Source: a virus
Taxonomy: Duplodnaviria; Caudoviricetes
Reading direction: 5' to 3' (one strand)
IMG/VR virus record: IMGVR_UViG_3300025888_000009
Location: 1 to 34,097 of that record
Length of the DNA: 34,097 bases
Part shown: in pieces, positions 3,876-32,483 of the stretch
How the letters are laid out: every line of letters starts with the position of its first letter
Position numbering within the stretch: position 1 is the stretch's first letter
Position numbers and translations under genes: made by a program
The notes under the pieces: model-generated
What the model was told of the DNA's origin: nothing
Seen by the model: only the letters and a program-made list of their open reading frames with translations
Databases searched by the model: none

Positions 3876-3996
3876 ATTAAGCGTATGGTGCTAGTAGCAA
3901 GCCCGACGATTGCCCCATCAGTTAGCTTTCAAATCGCAATATCTATCCAGCTGATTCATTTACTACCAGCACTACTACGTTTAATTGTTAATGTTA
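3876..3996 (-). ncRNA. Putative structured RNA cassette: boxA-like TAACATTAACAATT plus long closing stem; paralogous stem to 31581-31701
   Basis: GTGCTGGTAGTAA (3960-3972) pairs with TTGCTACTAGCAC (3888-3900) using G-U pairs on the minus strand; outer stem 3976-3985/3876-3885. Confidence 0.7.
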
Positions 3997-6568: not shown

Positions 6569-6764
6569 TTTATCCCCTATGTAATTACTACTGTTATTTT
6601 GATATATCCCCCTATAATGGGAGGTACATGTAGTGATAAGTAACCTATACCATTTTAATTAAACCTATGTTATATTGAGGGTATTATAAATAAGTATTAT
6701 CAGTAATGGTATTGTTTAATTATAAGCACCTTATACCCCCTATATAGTTAATTTAACTAGTAAT

Positions 6765-6833
6765 AATAACGCCGTATTTGTGTTGATTACCCTCCACTCC
6801 ACACAGTTACACTACAAGGCGTTATTTTTATTT
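6765..6833 (+). ncRNA. Hairpin RNA/terminator with C-rich (anti-SD-like) loop
   Basis: AATAACGCC/GGCGTTATT stem, inner TGTGT/ACACA, loop TGATTACCCTCCACTCC, T-rich tail. Confidence 0.5.
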
Positions 6834-6846
6834 GGGATTTTTCTTG

Positions 6847-6875
6847 TTGCAAATAATGTTAGTAAAGCTTATAAT
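6847..6875 (+). promoter_or_regulatory. Promoter TTGCAA-17-TATAAT
   Basis: -35 6847-6852, -10 6870-6875. Confidence 0.8.
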
Positions 6876-6928
6876 TATAGCTAACTGATTGACGTATTAA
6901 AGTACTTAAATCAGTAGTATAAGTAGTT

Positions 6929-6956
6929 AAGAAAAAAACCTCTTGCGAGGCTTCTT
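6929..6956. terminator. Terminator hairpin (CCTC-TTGC-GAGG) with U7 tract on minus strand and weaker tract on plus strand
   Basis: AAGAAAAAAACCTC TTGC GAGGCTTCTT between convergent promoters. Confidence 0.65.
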
Positions 6957-6980
6957 CGATTAACGTATTAAAGTATCTTA

Positions 6981-7009
6981 ATTATAACGTACTTAATAAT
7001 CTTATGCAA
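6981..7009 (-). promoter_or_regulatory. Convergent promoter TTGCAT-17-TATAAT
   Basis: -35 7004-7009, -10 6981-6986. Confidence 0.8.
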
Positions 7010-7150
7010 TAGTTATGGGGAGTCGCTGATCTATGCCAGTAAACGTAACTTTAAAACAGTTTACAAAATAGACTCAACGTTTTAGGCTATCGTAAAGCTT
7101 GCTTTATACTGATGAAAGTAAAACACAGCGTACATTAATAATTTGCATCA

Positions 7151-7498
7151 ATTAAAGGTAGTTGAGAGACGATAGAGCATAATCTCAAAGGAGAACACAT
7201 ATGGCTAAACATATAAGCAAGAGTGTCATAGAAGATATAGCTTACGAGATAAAAAGAGTTGGTTTAATTACTAAAGCCTACGAAGATGAAACAGTTAGTG
7301 AAGAAATGTCTTTAAATTTTGGTAGTATTGATGATTTTAATCTTAGTGCTACTCGTACATTAGAGTGGTTAACTGCTAATATCGCAGATATACTAGCTGA
7401 ACATGACCCAACATTCGATTATGATAGATTTAACAAACAAGCATCATTTAATATAGAAATATAATAATAAAATCTATCGTCTCTCACATGCCTTTAAT
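7151..7498 (+). repeat. Inverted repeat enclosing ORF 7201-7464 (10 bp + 2x2 loop + 14 bp), preceded by boxA-like GTACATTAATAATT (7130-7143)
   Basis: TGAGAGACGATAGA 7163-7176 / TCTATCGTCTCTCA 7473-7486; ATTAAAGGTA 7151-7160 / TGCCTTTAAT 7489-7498. Confidence 0.85.
7201..7464 (+). CDS. Hypothetical protein (one of only two plus-strand genes)
   Basis: AAGGAG RBS; 87 aa; C-terminal ..IADILAEHDPTFDYDRF.. Confidence 0.85.
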   Translation: MAKHISKSVIEDIAYEIKRVGLITKAYEDETVSEEMSLNFGSIDDFNLSATRTLEWLTANIADILAEHDPTFDYDRFNKQASFNIEI

Positions 7499-14220: not shown

Positions 14221-16067
14221 ATTGCTAGCTCCGTTTTGCCGTTGGCTCTTAGTTGTTCGTTTAGGCGGTCAATTAATCTTTTAGCTAAGGCTCGTTCGTC
14301 AGCTGGTGAGGCGGTCATGATGCCTGATAAATTAAGGCTTATATTGTTGTTCACCACTTTACTACTGCCACCAATCATACCTTGTAAATCTTTACTATTA
14401 ACAATCGTACCAGATGTACGAGGCACAAATAATTCTGATGTGCTGTTGAGTGAACCGTCTGGGTTATCACCTACGAAGTAAGGTGTGTTTGATGAAACTG
14501 CTCCACCAGCAGCTTTATGTGGGATTGAATCACCAGTATTTTTACCACTTATGTTATAGCTAAAAGTGCTACCGTTAAAGTTATTAAGATTAGTTTTGAG
14601 CACTCCAAAATCTTCGTTTTGTTTACGCCATGCTGCAGCACCGTTATAACCAGCATCTTCAATCTTTTTAAGTTCCTTAACTACCGCTTCTACTTTTGGA
14701 ACTTCTGTTATTGCGTCTTTGCTAGCTTTTATTGCGTCTTTTAGCAAACCCTGTTTTGTTGTAGCTGTGTCGGTAGCCACATTAGCTTCTGCTTGAGCTT
14801 TAATATATTGAGGGCTATCCTTACCGTATTGATTAAGCATATCTGTTGCGTGTTGAATAGCTGCAGCTTTGGTTTCTTCTGCAATAATAGCATTTAGATT
14901 TGCTTGATGTTCTGTTATTGCAGTTCCTGTAACATTATCCATTGCAATTTTAAGATTATCTTTTGCAGTTGTTAATCTTTCAGCTGCGCTCTTAGATAAA
15001 TCACTTGATGCAACTAATGTAGCAAAAGCCACTGATAGACCAATTATAGCGGCAGTACCAGCTACATAAGGGTTTAACGCCATAACGGCGTTTAAAGCAC
15101 CTTGTGATATAGCTGCTACACCAACTATAGTGTTATAGGCTACCATTGCAGTTGCTAATCCTGATATAGCAGGTAGATATGTCATAAATGTATTTGATGC
15201 AGTTGTAACCGTACCATTAAGAGCTGCCATCGCACCATTAACTCCACCTATGCTATCAAACCAGTTTAATGATGATGTCACCCAAGGCATAATGCCTTGT
15301 GCAATTGCTTGACCAATACCCTCTTGAACATTACCAAGCCTATTTTTTAGGATTGTTAATTGTCCTGCAAATGTACTACCAGCTGCCGTTGCTGAACCGC
15401 CAAACTCGGTTTGTAATTCTTTTAAGATGATTGATTGTGCGCCAGCCGTATCACCAACTTCAACTAATGATTTAATTAAATCTTTTTGGCTCTCAGTTAA
15501 TCGTACACCAACACGTTGCAAGGCAGTTGCTCCAAGTACAGGGTCTTGTAAGGCTTTACCAACTTGGATAGCGGTAGATTTTAAATCAGTTCCCATTGCG
15601 GTTGACATATCCAGTACAGCTTGAGTAGTTTGTGGAAATACATCTTTGCCAATATTAGTAAACGTTAATAACATATTCTCTGCCGATTGAATGACCTCAT
15701 CAGCATAAGGGGTTACACTCTCAAATGCTGTTGCTAAATCGGTTACTTGTCTTGCAGTTACACCAGCAGCACCAGCTGTAGATTTTAACACTGCCTCAGT
15801 TTGTGATTGAGCAGCTTGTGCTTCTTCATAAGCTTGAACAGATGAAACACCAAAAGCTACGACAGCAGCTCCAGCAGCAACAAGAGCGACTGTTGCTACT
15901 TGTTTAAAGTTAGCAAATGCAGCATTAGCCTTATCTGTACCGCCTGTTATACCTTTATCGAGTGAATCGCCAGTTCTTTTAGCTATAGCGTCTACTTCTG
16001 CGGAGTCTTTACTCAGTTGACTAGAATTAATTTTAGCGTCATATTCAATTGATCCAACATTCTCCAT
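14217..16067 (-). CDS. Tape measure protein (616 aa)
   Basis: Ala/Gly-rich helical protein; AIQVGKALQDPVLG..ALQRVGV; C-terminal AAGGAV...ELFVP. Confidence 0.92.
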   Translation of the reverse strand: MENVGSIEYDAKINSSQLSKDSAEVDAIAKRTGDSLDKGITGGTDKANAAFANFKQVATVALVAAGAAVVAFGVSSVQAYEEAQAAQSQTEAVLKSTAGAAGVTARQVTDLATAFESVTPYADEVIQSAENMLLTFTNIGKDVFPQTTQAVLDMSTAMGTDLKSTAIQVGKALQDPVLGATALQRVGVRLTESQKDLIKSLVEVGDTAGAQSIILKELQTEFGGSATAAGSTFAGQLTILKNRLGNVQEGIGQAIAQGIMPWVTSSLNWFDSIGGVNGAMAALNGTVTTASNTFMTYLPAISGLATAMVAYNTIVGVAAISQGALNAVMALNPYVAGTAAIIGLSVAFATLVASSDLSKSAAERLTTAKDNLKIAMDNVTGTAITEHQANLNAIIAEETKAAAIQHATDMLNQYGKDSPQYIKAQAEANVATDTATTKQGLLKDAIKASKDAITEVPKVEAVVKELKKIEDAGYNGAAAWRKQNEDFGVLKTNLNNFNGSTFSYNISGKNTGDSIPHKAAGGAVSSNTPYFVGDNPDGSLNSTSELFVPRTSGTIVNSKDLQGMIGGSSKVVNNNISLNLSGIMTASPADERALAKRLIDRLNEQLRANGKTELAI

Positions 16068-26759: not shown

Positions 26760-27464
26760 TTAGCGTTCATATTCTGATTTCTCCTTAAACTTACTTTCTA
26801 TTATACTCTTTACGTTACCGTTGAATGCTTGGTCTAGGGTACTTATAAAGGTCGTGTCTGGTATCTTATCAGTTGGGGCGTATAACTTTACATCTTTCAT
26901 TATAATACTAACGTCGTAGTAAGTGTTACCGTAGATAGTTCTTGGTAAAACAACCTTGCCTCTTCTTAGTAGTGGTAATATCTCGTTGCTTAATTCTAGC
27001 CTTTTTTGTTTATTCATTATCATCGGTACGTGTAGTTCATACGAAAGTAAATCGGTTAGTCCCTTTTGTAATAAATAATCCCTAGTAGCCATAACGTGCT
27101 TTGTGTGGCGTTGGAGCATTGGGGTTTGGCGTTTACTTATAAAGGTATCAATATCGCCAGCATGATAGTTTAGTAGCTCTTTACACTCTTTAAATATAAA
27201 AAAGTCATCATTCATATATACAAAATCATCACTTAACCTATCGTCTAGCAATGCAAGTCTGAGGTTTAGTTCACAATCGTGTTGTCTGTTTTTGCCTCGT
27301 TCTGTTCTTGGTAAATATATGACTTTATCAGATATAAAGTCCGGCTCATCACCACATATAAAAATCCGACGGCAATTAATGTTTTTAAGTGATCGAAGAC
27401 AATATCTAAGCTCATCTGTCTTACTGTGGCAATAGGGTATTACACAATCTATTTGTGACGCCAT
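26760..27464 (-). CDS. Stealth-family-like sugar phosphotransferase/glycosyltransferase
   Basis: DELRYCLRSL, FVYMNDDFF, YELHVPM motifs. Confidence 0.75.
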   Translation of the reverse strand: MASQIDCVIPYCHSKTDELRYCLRSLKNINCRRIFICGDEPDFISDKVIYLPRTERGKNRQHDCELNLRLALLDDRLSDDFVYMNDDFFIFKECKELLNYHAGDIDTFISKRQTPMLQRHTKHVMATRDYLLQKGLTDLLSYELHVPMIMNKQKRLELSNEILPLLRRGKVVLPRTIYGNTYYDVSIIMKDVKLYAPTDKIPDTTFISTLDQAFNGNVKSIIESKFKEKSEYER

Positions 27465-28825
27465 AAAGAAGTCTCATTAGTTTTATCAAAGCTTTTGAAA
27501 ATCGTCGAGATGTGACGGCCGTAGTCTAGTAACTTTGGCATCTCATGTCGTGCTACATAATTAAATAACCCCATATCAGTTTGACCGACATTTGCTCGCT
27601 CATCGCTGTATATTCTGACCATTTGGTGGACAAATTCTAGGACGTTATCATAAGAACCACCGAGTATTCCGGCATTAAGTAAATCTGTATTACGACCTTG
27701 CCGTATAAAGTTAGTTAAGAATGCAGGCTTATGGTGGTTCATCATCCACTGACAGAGTAGTTTAACTGGTTCATCGCCTGTATAAATGTGTTTATCGTCA
27801 ATAGTTTCAAATGGGTTGCGTAACATCTCAACATCAGTACTATCAGTTATCCAGACAGCATCGCATGGGTTATCTCTTAAATATTTGTAGTAACTAATCC
27901 ACCTTTGAAAATATGGGTTAAGATATGTTTCAACTTTAATTAACTCAACATTTTTAGGCGGCGTGACATCATCAAAACAGTTATGTAATATCACTAGCTT
28001 TTGATTACCAACTGATTTAATCAATTCTGATAGCATATTAAAGTCTGTCTCTAATGAGCCTCGGCCTTGTGTGTCGTCCATACCTGTAAAGTAAGATGTT
28101 AGGATTATGTTATTCTTAAATTGCTTTTTTGCTTCTGGTTTATAAGGGCAATACTTTTTTGACATATAGCTAGCGTCCATTATTGGGCGTACTTCGTTAA
28201 GGTATTTTCTGCGGGTTGCAAGGTCGACTGTTGACGTAACTTCGAGTTGTTCATCTAAGCTGAATATCAATTTATCACTATTTGGGACATCCATATACCT
28301 AAAAGAGGTCAGTCCTGAATTAAAAATGCGGTTCGAAAGATCTAAGTGCTCCACGCCCCAAGCCTTATAACGTGTCTCCATTCCACCTACAATATCAAGG
28401 CATTTGTGATTCAAGTAAAGCATACAACCCCTTGGGTGTGTAAAAGCTTCAATCTTACTATCTTTGTACAATAAGTGACTATCGCCAACTTCTCTCTCAT
28501 TTATATATCTTATAAATATGTAGTTTAAATGCGGTTCTTCACTTTCTATGTATGGTTTCCACCAATCAAAGCATAAGGGAAAACAATCCGAATCAAAAAG
28601 GAAGATTTCATCGCAGTCATCTAATAATTCAAGGCATTTATTCTTAGCGTTATTTATCCCGACGGTTTGTTCAAATCTAAACGTGGCATCTGGTACTGGT
28701 ATAGCACTTCCGTCGTCGACAATGACTAATTTTGCACCATCGGGCATATATTTTCGTATTTCAACCATAGTTCGTTCATAAACTTCTGGTCGATCCTTTT
28801 CAGTAACCCCTATACCTATGCGCAT
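27449..28825 (-). CDS. Two-domain glycosyltransferase (GT2 GT-A domain plus second GT-A-like domain)
   Basis: VIVDDGS, GINNAKN, FLFDSD, WGVEH.DLS.R; second domain WITDSTDV...NPF...LNAGILGG...DMGLFN. Confidence 0.85.
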   Translation of the reverse strand: MRIGIGVTEKDRPEVYERTMVEIRKYMPDGAKLVIVDDGSAIPVPDATFRFEQTVGINNAKNKCLELLDDCDEIFLFDSDCFPLCFDWWKPYIESEEPHLNYIFIRYINEREVGDSHLLYKDSKIEAFTHPRGCMLYLNHKCLDIVGGMETRYKAWGVEHLDLSNRIFNSGLTSFRYMDVPNSDKLIFSLDEQLEVTSTVDLATRRKYLNEVRPIMDASYMSKKYCPYKPEAKKQFKNNIILTSYFTGMDDTQGRGSLETDFNMLSELIKSVGNQKLVILHNCFDDVTPPKNVELIKVETYLNPYFQRWISYYKYLRDNPCDAVWITDSTDVEMLRNPFETIDDKHIYTGDEPVKLLCQWMMNHHKPAFLTNFIRQGRNTDLLNAGILGGSYDNVLEFVHQMVRIYSDERANVGQTDMGLFNYVARHEMPKLLDYGRHISTIFKSFDKTNETSLWRHK

Positions 28826-29337
28826 TTTGCTATTCTCCGTTTTATTTTACTATATTCTCTCATGTAATCACGTTTACATTGCATACAACTTCTACCAACG
28901 CTACCATTTTTTCTACGCTTTATTTGTGTATTATCGACGCTATATTCATGACCTTGTGGGCAATGTGTTTTTATTAGATTAAATCTATGGCTATTACCAG
29001 TATGAAGATTTTCTTTTATAGTGACAACTTTTAAATGAGCAGGATTGACACAAGCCCTATGTTCACAACTTCTACCGCCAACACAAGTATCACGCTCTTT
29101 ATTATGGCAAGTATGGTCTAATAACATATTTTTTTCTATTTCCCCATTAAACAACTCATAAAAAGCTCTATGGGCAAATACTTCACGCTTATTTACATTA
29201 AATCTATTGTATCCATCTTGATTTTTTGCACCATTAAAAGACCAACAACCATTTTGTAATACTGTTATTTTAGATAGTAAATGTTGTATACGACTTATTG
29301 TTAGTGTTTCTATATTAGTTGGTTTTGGTAGACCCAT
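28816..29337 (-). CDS. HNH (zinc-binding) homing endonuclease
   Basis: GCW...AHR...LDHTC...CVNPAHL...EN; KTHCPQGHEY...C..C; likely start ATG 29337 with GGAG RBS. Confidence 0.9.
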   Translation of the reverse strand: MGLPKPTNIETLTISRIQHLLSKITVLQNGCWSFNGAKNQDGYNRFNVNKREVFAHRAFYELFNGEIEKNMLLDHTCHNKERDTCVGGRSCEHRACVNPAHLKVVTIKENLHTGNSHRFNLIKTHCPQGHEYSVDNTQIKRRKNGSVGRSCMQCKRDYMREYSKIKRRIAKCA

Positions 29338-29350
29338 TATTAACTCCATT

Positions 29351-29426
29351 ATTCAGCCACCCCACGACAAAGTGGCTGAATGTTAAAGTTAATAAGAGTG
29401 TCGTGGCTCATACCTATATTATAGCA
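29351..29426 (-). promoter_or_regulatory. HNH-dedicated promoter (TGCTATAAT) and structured leader (hairpin/pseudoknot)
   Basis: -10 at 29418-29423; stem 29351-29360/29372-29381; loop complementary to 29399-29406. Confidence 0.65.
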
Positions 29427-29431
29427 ATAAC

Positions 29432-30166
29432 CTACCATGTCCGCCAATTCCTTAATGATTCCTTTACGTCAATATTTTGTTCCCAGCCGAATGCCTTTTT
29501 TAATCGTGAGTTATCACCATCTAAAATATCCGCCTCTGATTCGCCTCGTTCGTTCATAACATAGTTGACAGCTGTAATACCCATTAAATTAACCACTTCT
29601 CGTACACTCAGTGCCTCATTAGCGCATAAGTCGTATGTTCCAGTCTCTTTGCTTTCAACTGCTCGTACAAAGGCTTGTGCGACGTCATCTACGTGTATGA
29701 AGTTACGAATCATTTCACCGTTATTATAAATTGTAGCATTGCCACGCATTAAAGTTGGTATTAATTGGCTTTCACTTTGGCCTGTACCAAATGGGTTGAA
29801 TATCCGAAAGGCTACTGAGTTTTCGGGCAGACATTCCTCAGCTAGTTTTTTGCTCATCATGTATGGGTTATAATCACCATAAATAGCGGCAGTTGAGGCT
29901 AATATTATCCGTTTATCACGATCAAGTAGAGCAGTTGATAAGGTATTATTTATAAAGAACTTCTCTGGGTTGTCGAAACTATCTTGAATGCCGATTACAC
30001 CTGCTAAGTGGATAATAGTATCAACTGACTTTGCATCAAATCGTTTAGTACAGTCATTACCGTCTGATAAATCAAACCGTTCAACTTGATGTCCTTCATT
30101 TTCTAAGGCTTCAACAATATGTCGGCCCAAAAATCCGTTAGAACCTATTACTAATATTTCACTCAT
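29432..30166 (-). CDS. NAD-dependent epimerase/dehydratase (extended SDR)
   Basis: GSNGFLG, IHLAG, STAAIYG, YMMSK, RNFIHVDDVA. Confidence 0.93.
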   Translation of the reverse strand: MSEILVIGSNGFLGRHIVEALENEGHQVERFDLSDGNDCTKRFDAKSVDTIIHLAGVIGIQDSFDNPEKFFINNTLSTALLDRDKRIILASTAAIYGDYNPYMMSKKLAEECLPENSVAFRIFNPFGTGQSESQLIPTLMRGNATIYNNGEMIRNFIHVDDVAQAFVRAVESKETGTYDLCANEALSVREVVNLMGITAVNYVMNERGESEADILDGDNSRLKKAFGWEQNIDVKESLRNWRTW

Positions 30167-30668: not shown

Positions 30669-30992
30669 TCACTTGCAGATTTTAACAGATGCTACAATTG
30701 GCTCAACTGCTGGCTCTTGTGGAGTCTGTGATGGTGCAGGTTGCTCGTGTTGCTTAACAAAGGAATCAATACACTGTTTCTCTGTTTCTTGTGTCATAGA
30801 GGCTTTCATGCACTCTGGTACTGCTGGGTCTGAATTATCGCAACCGTCAACTGGATTACTCCATCTATATGGATACTGACAATTACTATGATCAAATGGC
30901 TTACTTGTTTCAGCTAGTGAAGTATTCAGTGCTACTAACGACCAGCCAGAGATGGCAATTACAAATAGTATAATGATTGATATTCTTTTCAT
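30669..30992 (-). CDS. Secreted/membrane-anchored Cys-containing protein with Pro-rich tail
   Basis: Signal-peptide-like N-terminus; GGAG RBS. Confidence 0.7.
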   Translation of the reverse strand: MKRISIIILFVIAISGWSLVALNTSLAETSKPFDHSNCQYPYRWSNPVDGCDNSDPAVPECMKASMTQETEKQCIDSFVKQHEQPAPSQTPQEPAVEPIVASVKICK

Positions 30993-31243
30993 TTCACTCC
31001 GTTTCTTTTATCCCTTAAGTCTTGTATAAATCCACCGTGTTCTTCTGTATAAAGATAATCTTCCCAATCTTGTAATCTCTGGGCTTCTATAGCTTGATAT
31101 ACAGGGTCGTTAGCATTTCTTTCAGCTATCTGCCTCTCAATGCTAGCTATAATCATTCTCATACCGTCAAGATCTGGTACGGAGTGATCGTCTAATTCTT
31201 CTTGTATTTTAGCGTATTCTGTGAATGTTAATTTCTCACTCAT
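30989..31243 (-). CDS. Hypothetical protein
   Basis: AGGA RBS; ORF track. Confidence 0.65.
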   Translation of the reverse strand: MSEKLTFTEYAKIQEELDDHSVPDLDGMRMIIASIERQIAERNANDPVYQAIEAQRLQDWEDYLYTEEHGGFIQDLRDKRNGVK

Positions 31244-31368
31244 CTGATCGTCCTAAGTTTTATATCTTTTTTAATTTGGTTTAATTGTAAATCGTACTCG
31301 TATGATAATTTGAAACTATCTAACTTTGATTGTTTACTAATATTAAATCCTTACTTTTAAATGATATT

Positions 31369-31579
31369 AGTTATACATGGGTAAGGTCTAGTAGTAGAGT
31401 TGGACTTGAACCAACGACCTAAGCACCAATAAAAATCCTTTTGAGATTTTCTAATGCCACATTCTAACCAGCTGAACTATCCACTACTAGCTTTGGATAG
31501 CAATTGGGCTTCAGCATTTGCTTCTTTAGTGCCGCTTATTAAATTGCTATCCTTATCCATGTATAACTTTTAAATGTGC
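31369..31579 (-). ncRNA. Structured RNA cassette: boxA-like GCACATTTAAAA plus 18-bp closing stem enclosing a hairpin domain and the tRNA-like element
   Basis: 31551-31568 pairs with 31369-31386 (one mismatch); GGATAGCAATT/AATTGCTATCC 31495-31505/31542-31552. Confidence 0.75.
31388..31490 (-). tRNA. tRNA-like element with canonical D and T arms, elongated anticodon arm, 11-bp acceptor stem and no CCA; isotype unassignable
   Basis: CTAGTAGTGGA TA GTTC AGCTGGTTA GAAT G [39-nt arm] AGGTC GTTGG TTCAAGT CCAAC TCTACTACTAG. Confidence 0.75.
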
Positions 31580-31580
31580 T

Positions 31581-31701
31581 AATTAAGTATGTAGGTGCTA
31601 ATAGCAAGGGGGTCTAATCTTAACCCATAGGCTCAGGACTCAAGAGTGGTGACCTATGGAGAACCTTACTACCAGCATTACATACTTAATTGTGAATGTT
31701 C
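31581..31701 (-). ncRNA. Structured RNA cassette: boxA-like GAACATTCACAATT plus 13+14-bp stem with branched top
   Basis: 31679-31691/31581-31593 perfect; 31664-31677/31596-31609 with G-U pairs; inner CCATAGG/CCTATGG. Confidence 0.75.
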
Positions 31702-31710
31702 TAATTAGGT

Positions 31711-31793
31711 AGTTGCCATAACCGAGTGGGTGGTTATACGGACGTTATGTGATCTCGCAATGAACATAAACGAGCAACTTTTATTTAATGTAC
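31711..31793 (-). ncRNA. Structured RNA cassette: boxA-like GTACATTAAATAA plus three-way junction
   Basis: AGTTGC/GCAACT closing stem; ATAACC/GGTTAT and TTATGT/ACATAA hairpins. Confidence 0.5.
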
Positions 31794-31812
31794 ACCGTCA
31801 AGGCTTAATAAT

Positions 31813-31818
31813 ATTATA
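31813..31818 (-). promoter_or_regulatory. -10 element TATAAT upstream of ncRNA array
   Basis: Intergenic, ~20 nt upstream of first boxA-like motif; no clear -35. Confidence 0.5.
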
Positions 31819-31836
31819 CCTTATTTGCTTTATTCC

Positions 31837-32196
31837 CTATTTCTCCTTTGCTTTTAATTGGTCGATACGGTCTAATGTGGCAAAATATAGTTTGTATTTT
31901 AATTCTTGCTGTGCGATTACGTTTTGCTCAAAAACCTTATATTTATATGACGTAGTATTGTTCATATATTCTCTAAGTTTACGAACAAACCACAGGAACT
32001 CATCGCCACGACTAAGCTTGTCTTGCTCTATTTTTGCTTTCTTAACCTCGCTCTCTAATAGGGATAGAATAGATTGCTCGGCTTTATTAAGTCTTCGCCT
32101 ACTGTCATCTAACGAGTCATAAAATGACCCTCTTTGCAGTTTAGCAATAATAGTCTTTATTTTTTTATCTAACTCATTATCTAGTGTAGGTGTCAT
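31837..32196 (-). CDS. Hypothetical protein
   Basis: AGGAG RBS; ATGA overlap. Confidence 0.65.
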   Translation of the reverse strand: MTPTLDNELDKKIKTIIAKLQRGSFYDSLDDSRRRLNKAEQSILSLLESEVKKAKIEQDKLSRGDEFLWFVRKLREYMNNTTSYKYKVFEQNVIAQQELKYKLYFATLDRIDQLKAKEK

Positions 32197-32483
32197 AGTT
32201 GCTCCTGTAATTTACCTATTTGAACATTTATTTCTTCAACACGCATATCAATAGCACTGGATAAGCATTTTCGTAGGTTACGAGATAATGGCTCTTTATT
32301 AAACGTATTGTCCCAAAATATTATATTCTTATACTTCCTACGTTTTAGAACTGGTGGATATGGACCGAATACAGACTCTTTATTAAAACTTAGTTCCTTT
32401 AACTCTTTTCGCAATCCCTGTATTTGAACAATAATATTTTCTTTATCTAGTGTAGGGTTACTGGTTTGGGGTGTGTTATTCAT
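32193..32483 (-). CDS. Hypothetical protein
   Basis: ORF track; ATGA overlap. Confidence 0.6.
   Translation of the reverse strand: MNNTPQTSNPTLDKENIIVQIQGLRKELKELSFNKESVFGPYPPVLKRRKYKNIIFWDNTFNKEPLSRNLRKCLSSAIDMRVEEINVQIGKLQEQL

Follow-up and report, generated by a model that had tools for sequence, protein, structure and literature searches.

The minus strand of the phage genome analysed here carries a tandem array of stalk-closed RNAs that acts like an rRNA leader–trailer module; the features tested identify it neither as an rRNA operon nor as a tRNA, Y RNA or mobile DNA element. With moderate confidence, the array is read as a chassis on which exchangeable RNAs are folded and excised in the manner of rRNA, which would work through host Nus factors and RNase III. 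The argument is built on features observed directly, namely the folds, a stalk family whose arms covary, a boxA match at a fixed spacing, the exchange of the enclosed RNAs (cargoes) between relatives and the presence of NusB and RNase III, with no Rho found, in the genomes of the likely host class. The array is real and is bigger than a first-pass annotation, made from the sequence alone, had seen; overlooked there were a tRNA-shaped module in unit 3, two further boxA-headed stalks (3876–3996 and 7130–7498) and a conserved 33-codon frame (Table 1).

Table 1. Features of the array, of the related stalks in the same genome and of the nusB–rnc neighbourhood in genomes of the likely host class.
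Feature	Position	Strand	Description
−10 hexamer of likely promoter	31813–31818	−	Read from sequence; position kept in related phage G734
A-rich motif before unit 1	31780–31793	−	Poor boxA match, −1.7 bits
Unit 1	31711–31779	−	Small leader domain; 6-bp closing helix; interior unconserved
boxA-like motif before unit 2	31688–31701	−	15.0 bits; rank 1 of 68,168 window positions
Unit 2	31581–31691	−	Family stalk: 13-bp outer helix, 1×2 loop, 14-bp inner helix; cargo about 55 nt
Weak boxA-like motif before unit 3	31565–31579	−	3.7–4.4 bits; rank 84
Unit 3	31369–31568	−	Stalk (12 bp plus 3–5) closing a three-way junction
Side hairpin of unit 3	31495–31552	−	11-bp base
tRNA-shaped module in unit 3	31387–31490	−	Rfam tRNA, 42.5 bits, E 6e-6; ARAGORN tRNA-???
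Fourth A-rich motif and purine-rich stretch, then conserved 33-codon frame (31240–31341)	31240–31365	−	Frame without AUG; boxA score below 0
Second family stalk copy	3876–3996	−	59-nt cargo, unrelated; boxA-like motif ranks 6 (11.8 bits); fold z −3.68
boxA-headed stalk round an ORF	7130–7498	+	10+14-bp stalk, different in sequence; boxA-like motif ranks 2 (13.5 bits); fold z −4.53
nusB–rnc neighbours, example 1	G103:C4:76028–77561
nusB–rnc neighbours, example 2	G026:C1:221097–222463

The window, that is, the whole stretch of DNA that was analysed, is an entire virus record of 34,097 bases with genes for terminase, portal, a protease–capsid fusion, tape measure and tail proteins. Since both contig ends (33602–34097 and 1–311, minus strand) lie inside one pentapeptide-repeat gene fused to DUF5758, the window is probably a circle opened within that gene; the related phage G734 is broken at the same spot. 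The array occupies a gap amid small genes on the minus strand. In scans of 46 and 39 of the 95 listed ORFs, nothing was recognised as an RNase, ligase, reverse transcriptase, Cas protein, Ro60, integrase or transposase. Directly upstream of the terminase genes, the minus strand (26760–30166) encodes a nucleotide-sugar epimerase, a glycosyltransferase and a Stealth-like gene product, with an HNH gene in between, and a divergent promoter region with repeated palindromic words at 6700–7010 is a candidate regulatory switch. DNA reads of four runs, one of which is possibly the window's own source, revealed no variants when mapped on 30900–32300.

Predicted folds bear out the three units that the first-pass annotation had placed on the minus strand, and no shuffle out of 100 was as stable as the whole region (z −5.56). 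Unit 2 is strongly folded, with a z of −6.55 on the minus strand versus −3.79 on the plus strand, and its 27-bp stalk is a long flank-joining helix; the stalk of unit 3, which has a z of −5.75, is borderline in this respect at 15–17 bp. Unit 1, described earlier as a structured domain, is by itself no more stable than chance (z −1.34; 27 of 200 shuffles as stable), and its 6-bp helix falls short of a long flank-joining helix. It stands where rrn leaders have a 5′ hairpin, and its closing helix recurs with different interiors in G734 (z −2.85) and in one further locus, L149. A scan for this helix together with boxA returned 58 loci, 45 of them distinct; only that of G734 is real, and the others look like chance occurrences in coding DNA. 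No motif of the A-rich type precedes the unit 1 counterpart in G734. The TATAAT hexamer proposed as a −10 element is present and kept in G734, but it has no −35 partner and was not listed by a promoter scan. The bias of G–U pairs towards the minus strand is seen in the predicted folds of units 2 (3 versus 1 on the plus strand) and 3 (9 versus 5), but not of unit 1 (1 versus 2). No intrinsic terminator was found 3′ of the array; the sole match is inside unit 2 and at chance level.

A matrix for boxA was derived from the motif that precedes 16S genes (16 of 21) and 23S genes (10 of 10) in the likely host class. A pattern served to anchor its centre, and the other five 16S leaders yielded no such anchor. 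The 26 host sites score 10.3–19.9 bits on this matrix, and their consensus differs at 3 of 14 positions from the E. coli rrnB boxA (the E. coli consensus being as given in PMC13753749). The motif before unit 2 matches this host motif, which sustains the earlier comparison with rrn boxA. A boxA-related motif had been claimed before every unit; the claim stands for unit 2, is weak for unit 3 and fails for unit 1 and for the fourth motif. The presence of only one strong boxA within the array counts against its reading as a chassis. Over all positions of the window, ranks 1, 2 and 6 each head a stalk, and ranks 3–5 have no clear stalk; of the boxA-headed sites listed, those of ranks 1, 2 and 6 and that of unit 3 give the four strongest duplexes. 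A degenerate pattern for the shared word matched the window eight times versus 3.8 ± 1.8 expected, and 4 of 100 shuffles reached as high a count.

The two additional boxA-headed stalks differ in kind. The ends of unit 2 recur at 3876–3985 round an unrelated interior, with a sigma-70-like promoter before this copy and a ribosome-binding site after it. The stalk at 7130 encloses a conserved ORF of 87 aa (7201–7464), one of the few plus-strand genes, with 18 homologues besides itself and no Pfam domain. The cargo of unit 2 has no known relative.

Search patterns built from the arms shared by unit 2 and the 3876 copy found 12 and 38 viral stretches, 7 genome contigs and 118 metagenome stretches, the number of the latter being estimated at about 170. 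Both arms were present in 119 of the 205 loci examined, and 86 held no two-arm cassette. Antisense twins were dropped from the family counts, as were L129, L224, L315, L324 and one long L366 pairing, all judged to be chance; L266, which is the window's own contig, was also dropped, and hence the 3876 copy is outside these counts. The resulting family comprises 91 distinct cassettes, whose cargoes of 16–272 nt fall into 87 unrelated clusters. About 10 bp of outer helix, then a 3×2 internal loop and 13 bp of inner helix make up the layout shared by 83 of 87 representatives. Outer pairs 4–10 are paired in 573 of 581 cells, as compared with 425 ± 8 when arms are swapped between cassettes, and G–U outnumbers A–C by 34:1; the pairing filter favours paired arms, and these pairing counts and this ratio are upper bounds. 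In a 20-sequence alignment, two-sided changes are found at 6 of 7 outer pairs, which answers the call for a covariation check positively for the outer helix of the unit 2 type. The inner helix shows one-sided variation only in the same alignment, with no two-sided change, and this counts against the chassis. The constancy of the 5′ arm was partly built in by the exact-match searches and is likewise an upper bound.

Two properties of the family do not depend on the pairing filter: for 60 of 66 cassettes the downstream gene is co-oriented, and 21 of 70 have a promoter-like site upstream, versus 3 on the opposite strand. A boxA above 8 bits, a motif absent from the two-arm search patterns, occurs upstream of 37 of 86 cassettes, as against 2 of 70 control windows and 0.7% of shuffles, and in 28 of these 37 it is placed 10–11 nt from the inner arm. 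The remaining 49 of 86 cassettes have no boxA above 8 bits, which is a point against a boxA-dependent chassis. The terminase of this phage was not found in the five other carriers searched, one of which has head and tail genes in common with it, and therefore the family spans unrelated phages; a terminase search gave five short loci, with the array in none.

Tandem arrays of two to five stalk-closed RNAs, with several stalk types, were observed at L136:2970–3700 and in L131, L139, L306 and L137. At L145:3300–3700, in genome G004, a family cassette follows boxA-like words in a chromosomal setting with no evident prophage; the genes preceding it are presumably recG and rsmD. Two ordinary tRNAs excepted, Rfam searches of 12, 7 and 20 loci of the family gave no match for the stalk or the cargoes, and the GOLLD, ROOL and ribozyme models had no match in the window, the family loci or the G734 array. 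The stalk word is also absent from the six supplementary files of PMC10690425 that were searched.

Near-constant inverted ends, unrelated interiors, dispersed copies and exchange at one genomic place are also what might be seen if the arms, as DNA, bounded a MITE- or attC-like unit, be it a small mobile element or a recombination cassette, with RNA folding as a by-product. Such an origin is very improbable. Target-site duplications of 3–8 nt are not above chance in 86 cassettes, the strand bias goes with transcription and boxA, the arms covary within copies and the phage ORFs scanned include no recognised transposase or integrase.

The exchange itself was observed between relatives. The 34-kb phage G734 has, in the same genomic place, the same −10 hexamer, a unit with the 6-bp helix of unit 1 and the same downstream small gene. 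Its array consists of two stalks, each with a strong boxA (17.2 and 18.1 bits); the cargoes are unrelated and longer, the two stalk types stand in reverse order, and no Rfam family was matched by this array. At the site corresponding to 3.9 kb, the same stalk encloses a 133-nt cargo in place of the 59-nt one. The same layout with different cargoes means that the layout of the array is conserved between these relatives and its contents are exchanged.

The closing stem of unit 3, reported earlier as 18 bp, is really 12 contiguous pairs, a mismatch and then 3–5 less certain pairs (pair probabilities about 0.5). Its 5′ arm is similar to that of the first G734 stalk. An 11-nt direct repeat is found on both sides of the unit (31357–31367 and 31565–31575, minus strand); such a duplication is not typical of the stalk family. 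An exact-pattern scan with the side hairpin detected no homologue, its one match being a chance one in a coding region, and an alternative pairing of this hairpin with the anticodon hairpin was rejected at a cost of 9.3 kcal/mol.

No single Rfam family covers the region; the sole match is a partial tRNA within unit 3. In this module, the 7-bp acceptor is extended by 4 bp into the three-way junction, the D arm (31461–31477) and the T arm (31399–31415) possess the conserved elbow bases, and a 29-nt hairpin (31426–31454) replaces the 7-nt anticodon loop. No CCA is present at positions 74–76 and the acceptor end is not free; trimming and CCA addition may follow processing. An exact-pattern scan with the acceptor gave no matches, and nhmmer searches with each unit against the loci collected gave weak tRNA matches only. 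The 120 viral loci recovered with a generic D-arm/T-arm pattern are tRNAs, tRNA pairs and long-armed look-alikes, none of them homologous to unit 3. No tmRNA was reported by ARAGORN or Rfam, and the combination of a tRNA-like domain with a tag frame was not found. Tentatively, unit 3 might display a tRNA elbow, with neither an anticodon loop nor a chargeable end, to tRNA-recognising proteins; this is the weakest step of the scheme.

A tRNA-like domain on a closing stem, with D, anticodon and T arms in the order known from D. radiodurans Yrn1 (according to PMC4201824), also recalls a Y RNA binding Ro60. For unit 3, that identity is largely refuted: TROVE/Ro60 is absent from the phage ORFs scanned and was found in 0 of 121 host-class genomes, which are possibly incomplete, no Y RNA model matched, and inspection by eye revealed no Ro-binding motif close to the 5′ end such as PMC4201824 describes.

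The stalk could also be regarded as a tRNA-precursor-like handle, on which a cut leaves a CCA end on an 11-bp helix to be treated as an acceptor by RNase P, the CCA-adding enzyme or a synthetase. CCA does end the inner helix in 79 of 87 cassettes, there is a subclass in which the last 7 bp form the acceptor stem of a D/T-arm RNA, and unit 3 is arranged alike, with a G at −1 opposite C73. All three array units and the 7130 stalk, however, are without that CCA, the CCA of the tRNA-shaped subclass lies several bases past positions 74–76 and no T arm is found in 79 of 87 cargoes, which makes a handle of this type improbable.

As a set, the cargoes fold like shuffles (median z −0.12; 1 of 78 below −2), and this, too, counts against the chassis. 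T arms occur in 8 of 87 cargoes versus 1.3 expected (maximum 5), GNRA or UUCG hairpins number 30 versus 15.7 ± 3.7 expected, two cargo pairs have 2 and 5 compensatory changes within the cargo, and two cargoes contain short ORF-like stretches. In a targeted scan, 8 of 11 matches were tRNA-shaped RNAs with the stalk inner helix as acceptor stem and an enlarged anticodon region; two of these eight were already in the collection and one is cut by a contig end. Unit 3 follows the same plan with a different D arm. Matches to the phage's own genome in antisense are at most 10–13 nt when perfect, inside the shuffle range. Some cargoes look selected, the evidence being mixed. A putative role as decoy or sponge is favoured for the cargo.

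In L473–L478, L480, L481 and L284, tRNA-Leu-like RNAs were noted whose anticodon arm is replaced by a large variable insert and whose acceptor stem is the family stalk; several have an extra hairpin inserted in the T loop. Two cargoes (L413, about 14410–14440, and L142, about 1180–1200, both minus strand) contain the same short hairpin, flanked on its 5′ side by an A-rich stretch, and it is also found in L099 beside a tRNA-like element.

The variety of the cargoes admits another explanation, namely that the product consists of boxA and stalk, which would be made in abundance as decoys to titrate host NusB–S10 and RNase III away from pre-rRNA, and that the loop is mostly free filler. Having 87 cargo clusters in 91 cassettes, down to 16 nt in length, shuffle-like folding and several copies per genome behind promoter-like sites would all suit such a function. 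Filler is hard to reconcile with cargoes that include conserved proteins, with tRNA-shaped cargoes that use the inner helix as acceptor and with compensatory changes in cargo pairs; the explanation is fairly unlikely.

Another possibility is a cis role on phage messages, in which boxA speeds or protects transcription of the operon and RNase III cuts set message stability or translation, with T7 sites and the lambda N leader as parallels. A ribosome-binding site and start lie no more than 60 nt behind 22 of 66 cassettes, as against 5% in shuffles; the 7130 stalk wraps a gene, a small gene stands 3′ of the array in both the window and G734, and an RNase III site is present on most T7 transcripts (PMC3867540). 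Tandem stalks with no gene between them (the window array, G734, L136, L137 and L306) and the lack of any Rho found to be resisted argue in the other direction, and a cis role as the explanation is unlikely, although it and the chassis are not mutually exclusive.

The frame downstream of the array bears on the fourth A-rich motif, for which a role in starting translation is likelier than one as boxA. In G734 the 33-codon frame is kept at 56% identity, with differences distributed 8/8/14 by codon position, and it was found in five further distinct contigs. Three homologues have an in-frame AUG; the rest have none and would need a non-AUG start.

Four of the seven genome matches of the family stalk are titled Saccharibacteria. 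A fifth genome has 16S pieces resembling those of Saccharibacteria, the sixth match is a phage contig in another bin and the seventh has no 3′ arm. The capsid–protease gene was matched in 1 of 301 genomes of that phylum, G103, where a prophage shares terminase (46% identity), portal and capsid (about 40%) and most tail genes with the phage; it adjoins ordinary chromosomal genes and an integrase-like ORF, the gene labels being the authors' own reading. From this 40–46% protein identity to one prophage, the host is likely a member of Saccharibacteria, of the class labelled here Saccharimonadia (the label used for the class of genome G004).

NusB was found in 40 of 41 and RNase III in 118 of 121 genomes of this class, and Rho in 0 of 121, all of these genomes being possibly incomplete. 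In 11 of 11 genomes listed in both searches, nusB and rnc lie on one strand within about 1.2 kb of each other (examples in Table 1). Antitermination, which had been suggested earlier, is thus left unsupported as a role against Rho, no Rho having been found in the 121 genomes searched. The likeness to an rRNA operon proposed at the same time holds where it is testable, in the boxA of unit 2, the covariation of the stalk and the NusB and RNase III of the host class, but does not extend to a boxA of its own for each unit.

The host's own rRNA stalks were compared with the inner helix of the family. At up to 5 mismatches, there was no match in the stalk flanks of 10 23S loci, and three chance matches were found elsewhere in these loci. 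A 9-nt word is common to the inner helix and 8 of 21 16S leaders, where it is about 5 nt closer to boxA, and a helix of 4–7 bp is common to several 23S stalks in the opposite direction; both were noticed after the fact. Judged by sequence, the constant inner helix does not appear to be copied from a host stalk, a point against the chassis. The stalk as a core host gene was also considered and rejected: 62 of 401 class genomes matched at up to 2 mismatches versus about 51 for a control, 2 matches were exact and both arms were present in 2 of 30 loci fetched. In the host 23S flanks (L192–L201), each pre-23S stalk arm is also able to fold locally into a hairpin by itself, possibly as a folding switch.

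The E. coli boxA is where a complex nucleates that keeps the 5′ arm anchored; the complex has been proposed to deliver this arm to the trailer, forming the RNase III site (PMC8632103 and PMC10250234), and 30S requires a helix longer than 17 bp in E. coli (PMC10250234). By analogy, the array would be transcribed in the likely host, NusB–S10 would bind the boxA and RNA polymerase modified by host Nus factors would keep each 5′ arm in place until synthesis of its 3′ partner. Host RNase III would then cut the stalk near the central loop, freeing stable, end-paired small RNAs. According to PMC3867540, a substrate of RNase III has about 22 bp, the cut being flanked by about 11 bp on either side, and cutting can be limited to one strand by loops at the site; the family geometry of about 10 bp, a loop and 13 bp is consistent with such a substrate and with the predicted cleavage. 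Since Rho was not found, boxA would more likely serve folding and hand-over to RNase III than antitermination. The distal box of RNase III sites is not conserved, according to the same paper (PMC3867540), and because the constancy of the inner helix exceeds this requirement of the enzyme, another reader of that helix may exist.

If this scheme is true, phages reuse rRNA-type co-transcriptional folding and excision as a portable module, into which arbitrary RNAs and small genes can be placed. A host class in which the NusB and RNase III genes adjoin and no Rho was found would make it possible to split the debated chaperone role of boxA from antitermination, on a substrate of 110 nt. The family would provide 87 phage RNAs as yet uncatalogued, might mark phages of Saccharibacteria and would offer, in the stalk, a natural design for stable RNA expression. 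A bolder version, speculative and unlikely, would have these phages run a plug-and-play RNA factory: a constant stalk, read by host Nus factors and RNase III and exchanged through recombination in its arms, would turn almost any sequence into an RNA that is abundant and protected at its ends; the helix left by the cut would, in most members, be acceptor-like and end in CCA, and the cargoes, some of them mimics of the tRNA elbow, would be fast-evolving tRNA-like decoys against the RNA-targeting defences or the translation control of the host. The cassette layout was not found in the published literature searched.

The leader of lambda N has an RNase III site. The RNase III sites of T7 (PMC3867540, PMC1540722) and the lambda nut sites (PMC10250234) resemble the present stalks in the use of Nus factors or RNase III by a phage and in a helix–loop–helix of about two turns. 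They differ in being short hairpins within messages, and the N protein and boxB are required in lambda; the stalk described here encloses an exchangeable cargo, and no gene resembling N was recognised. The Y RNAs YrlA and Yrn1 (PMC4201824) also place a tRNA elbow within a larger closed RNA and also occur on phages; YrlA has a closed acceptor loop that lies between its T arm and D arm, according to PMC4201824, whereas unit 3 has an enlarged anticodon arm. GOLLD, ROOL, other phage RNAs of Rfam 15 and the viral candidates of PMC10690425 are likewise structured phage ncRNAs, some of them tRNA-like, and differ from the stalk and cargoes, which have no Rfam match.

The boxA elements before CRISPR arrays and suhB (PMC13753749) also stand on a non-ribosomal, largely non-coding transcript of repeated units. 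There, according to the same paper, boxA counters Rho in Proteobacteria, the units are repeats and spacers and no closing stalks are present. The rrn leader and spacer, with NusA/B/E/G, SuhB, S4 and RNase III (PMC10250234, PMC8632103 and PMC13753749), have boxA at a short fixed distance before a long end-joining helix, as in the array, and in both cases there are several units per transcript, a leader hairpin in front and a tRNA-shaped element inside. In contrast to the rrn operon, the array has no rRNA match, its likely host has no Rho found and the sequence of its stalk does not appear to be that of the host; it is located on a phage, encloses 16–272 nt of unrelated RNA or a small gene, and its stalks also stand singly elsewhere in the genome.
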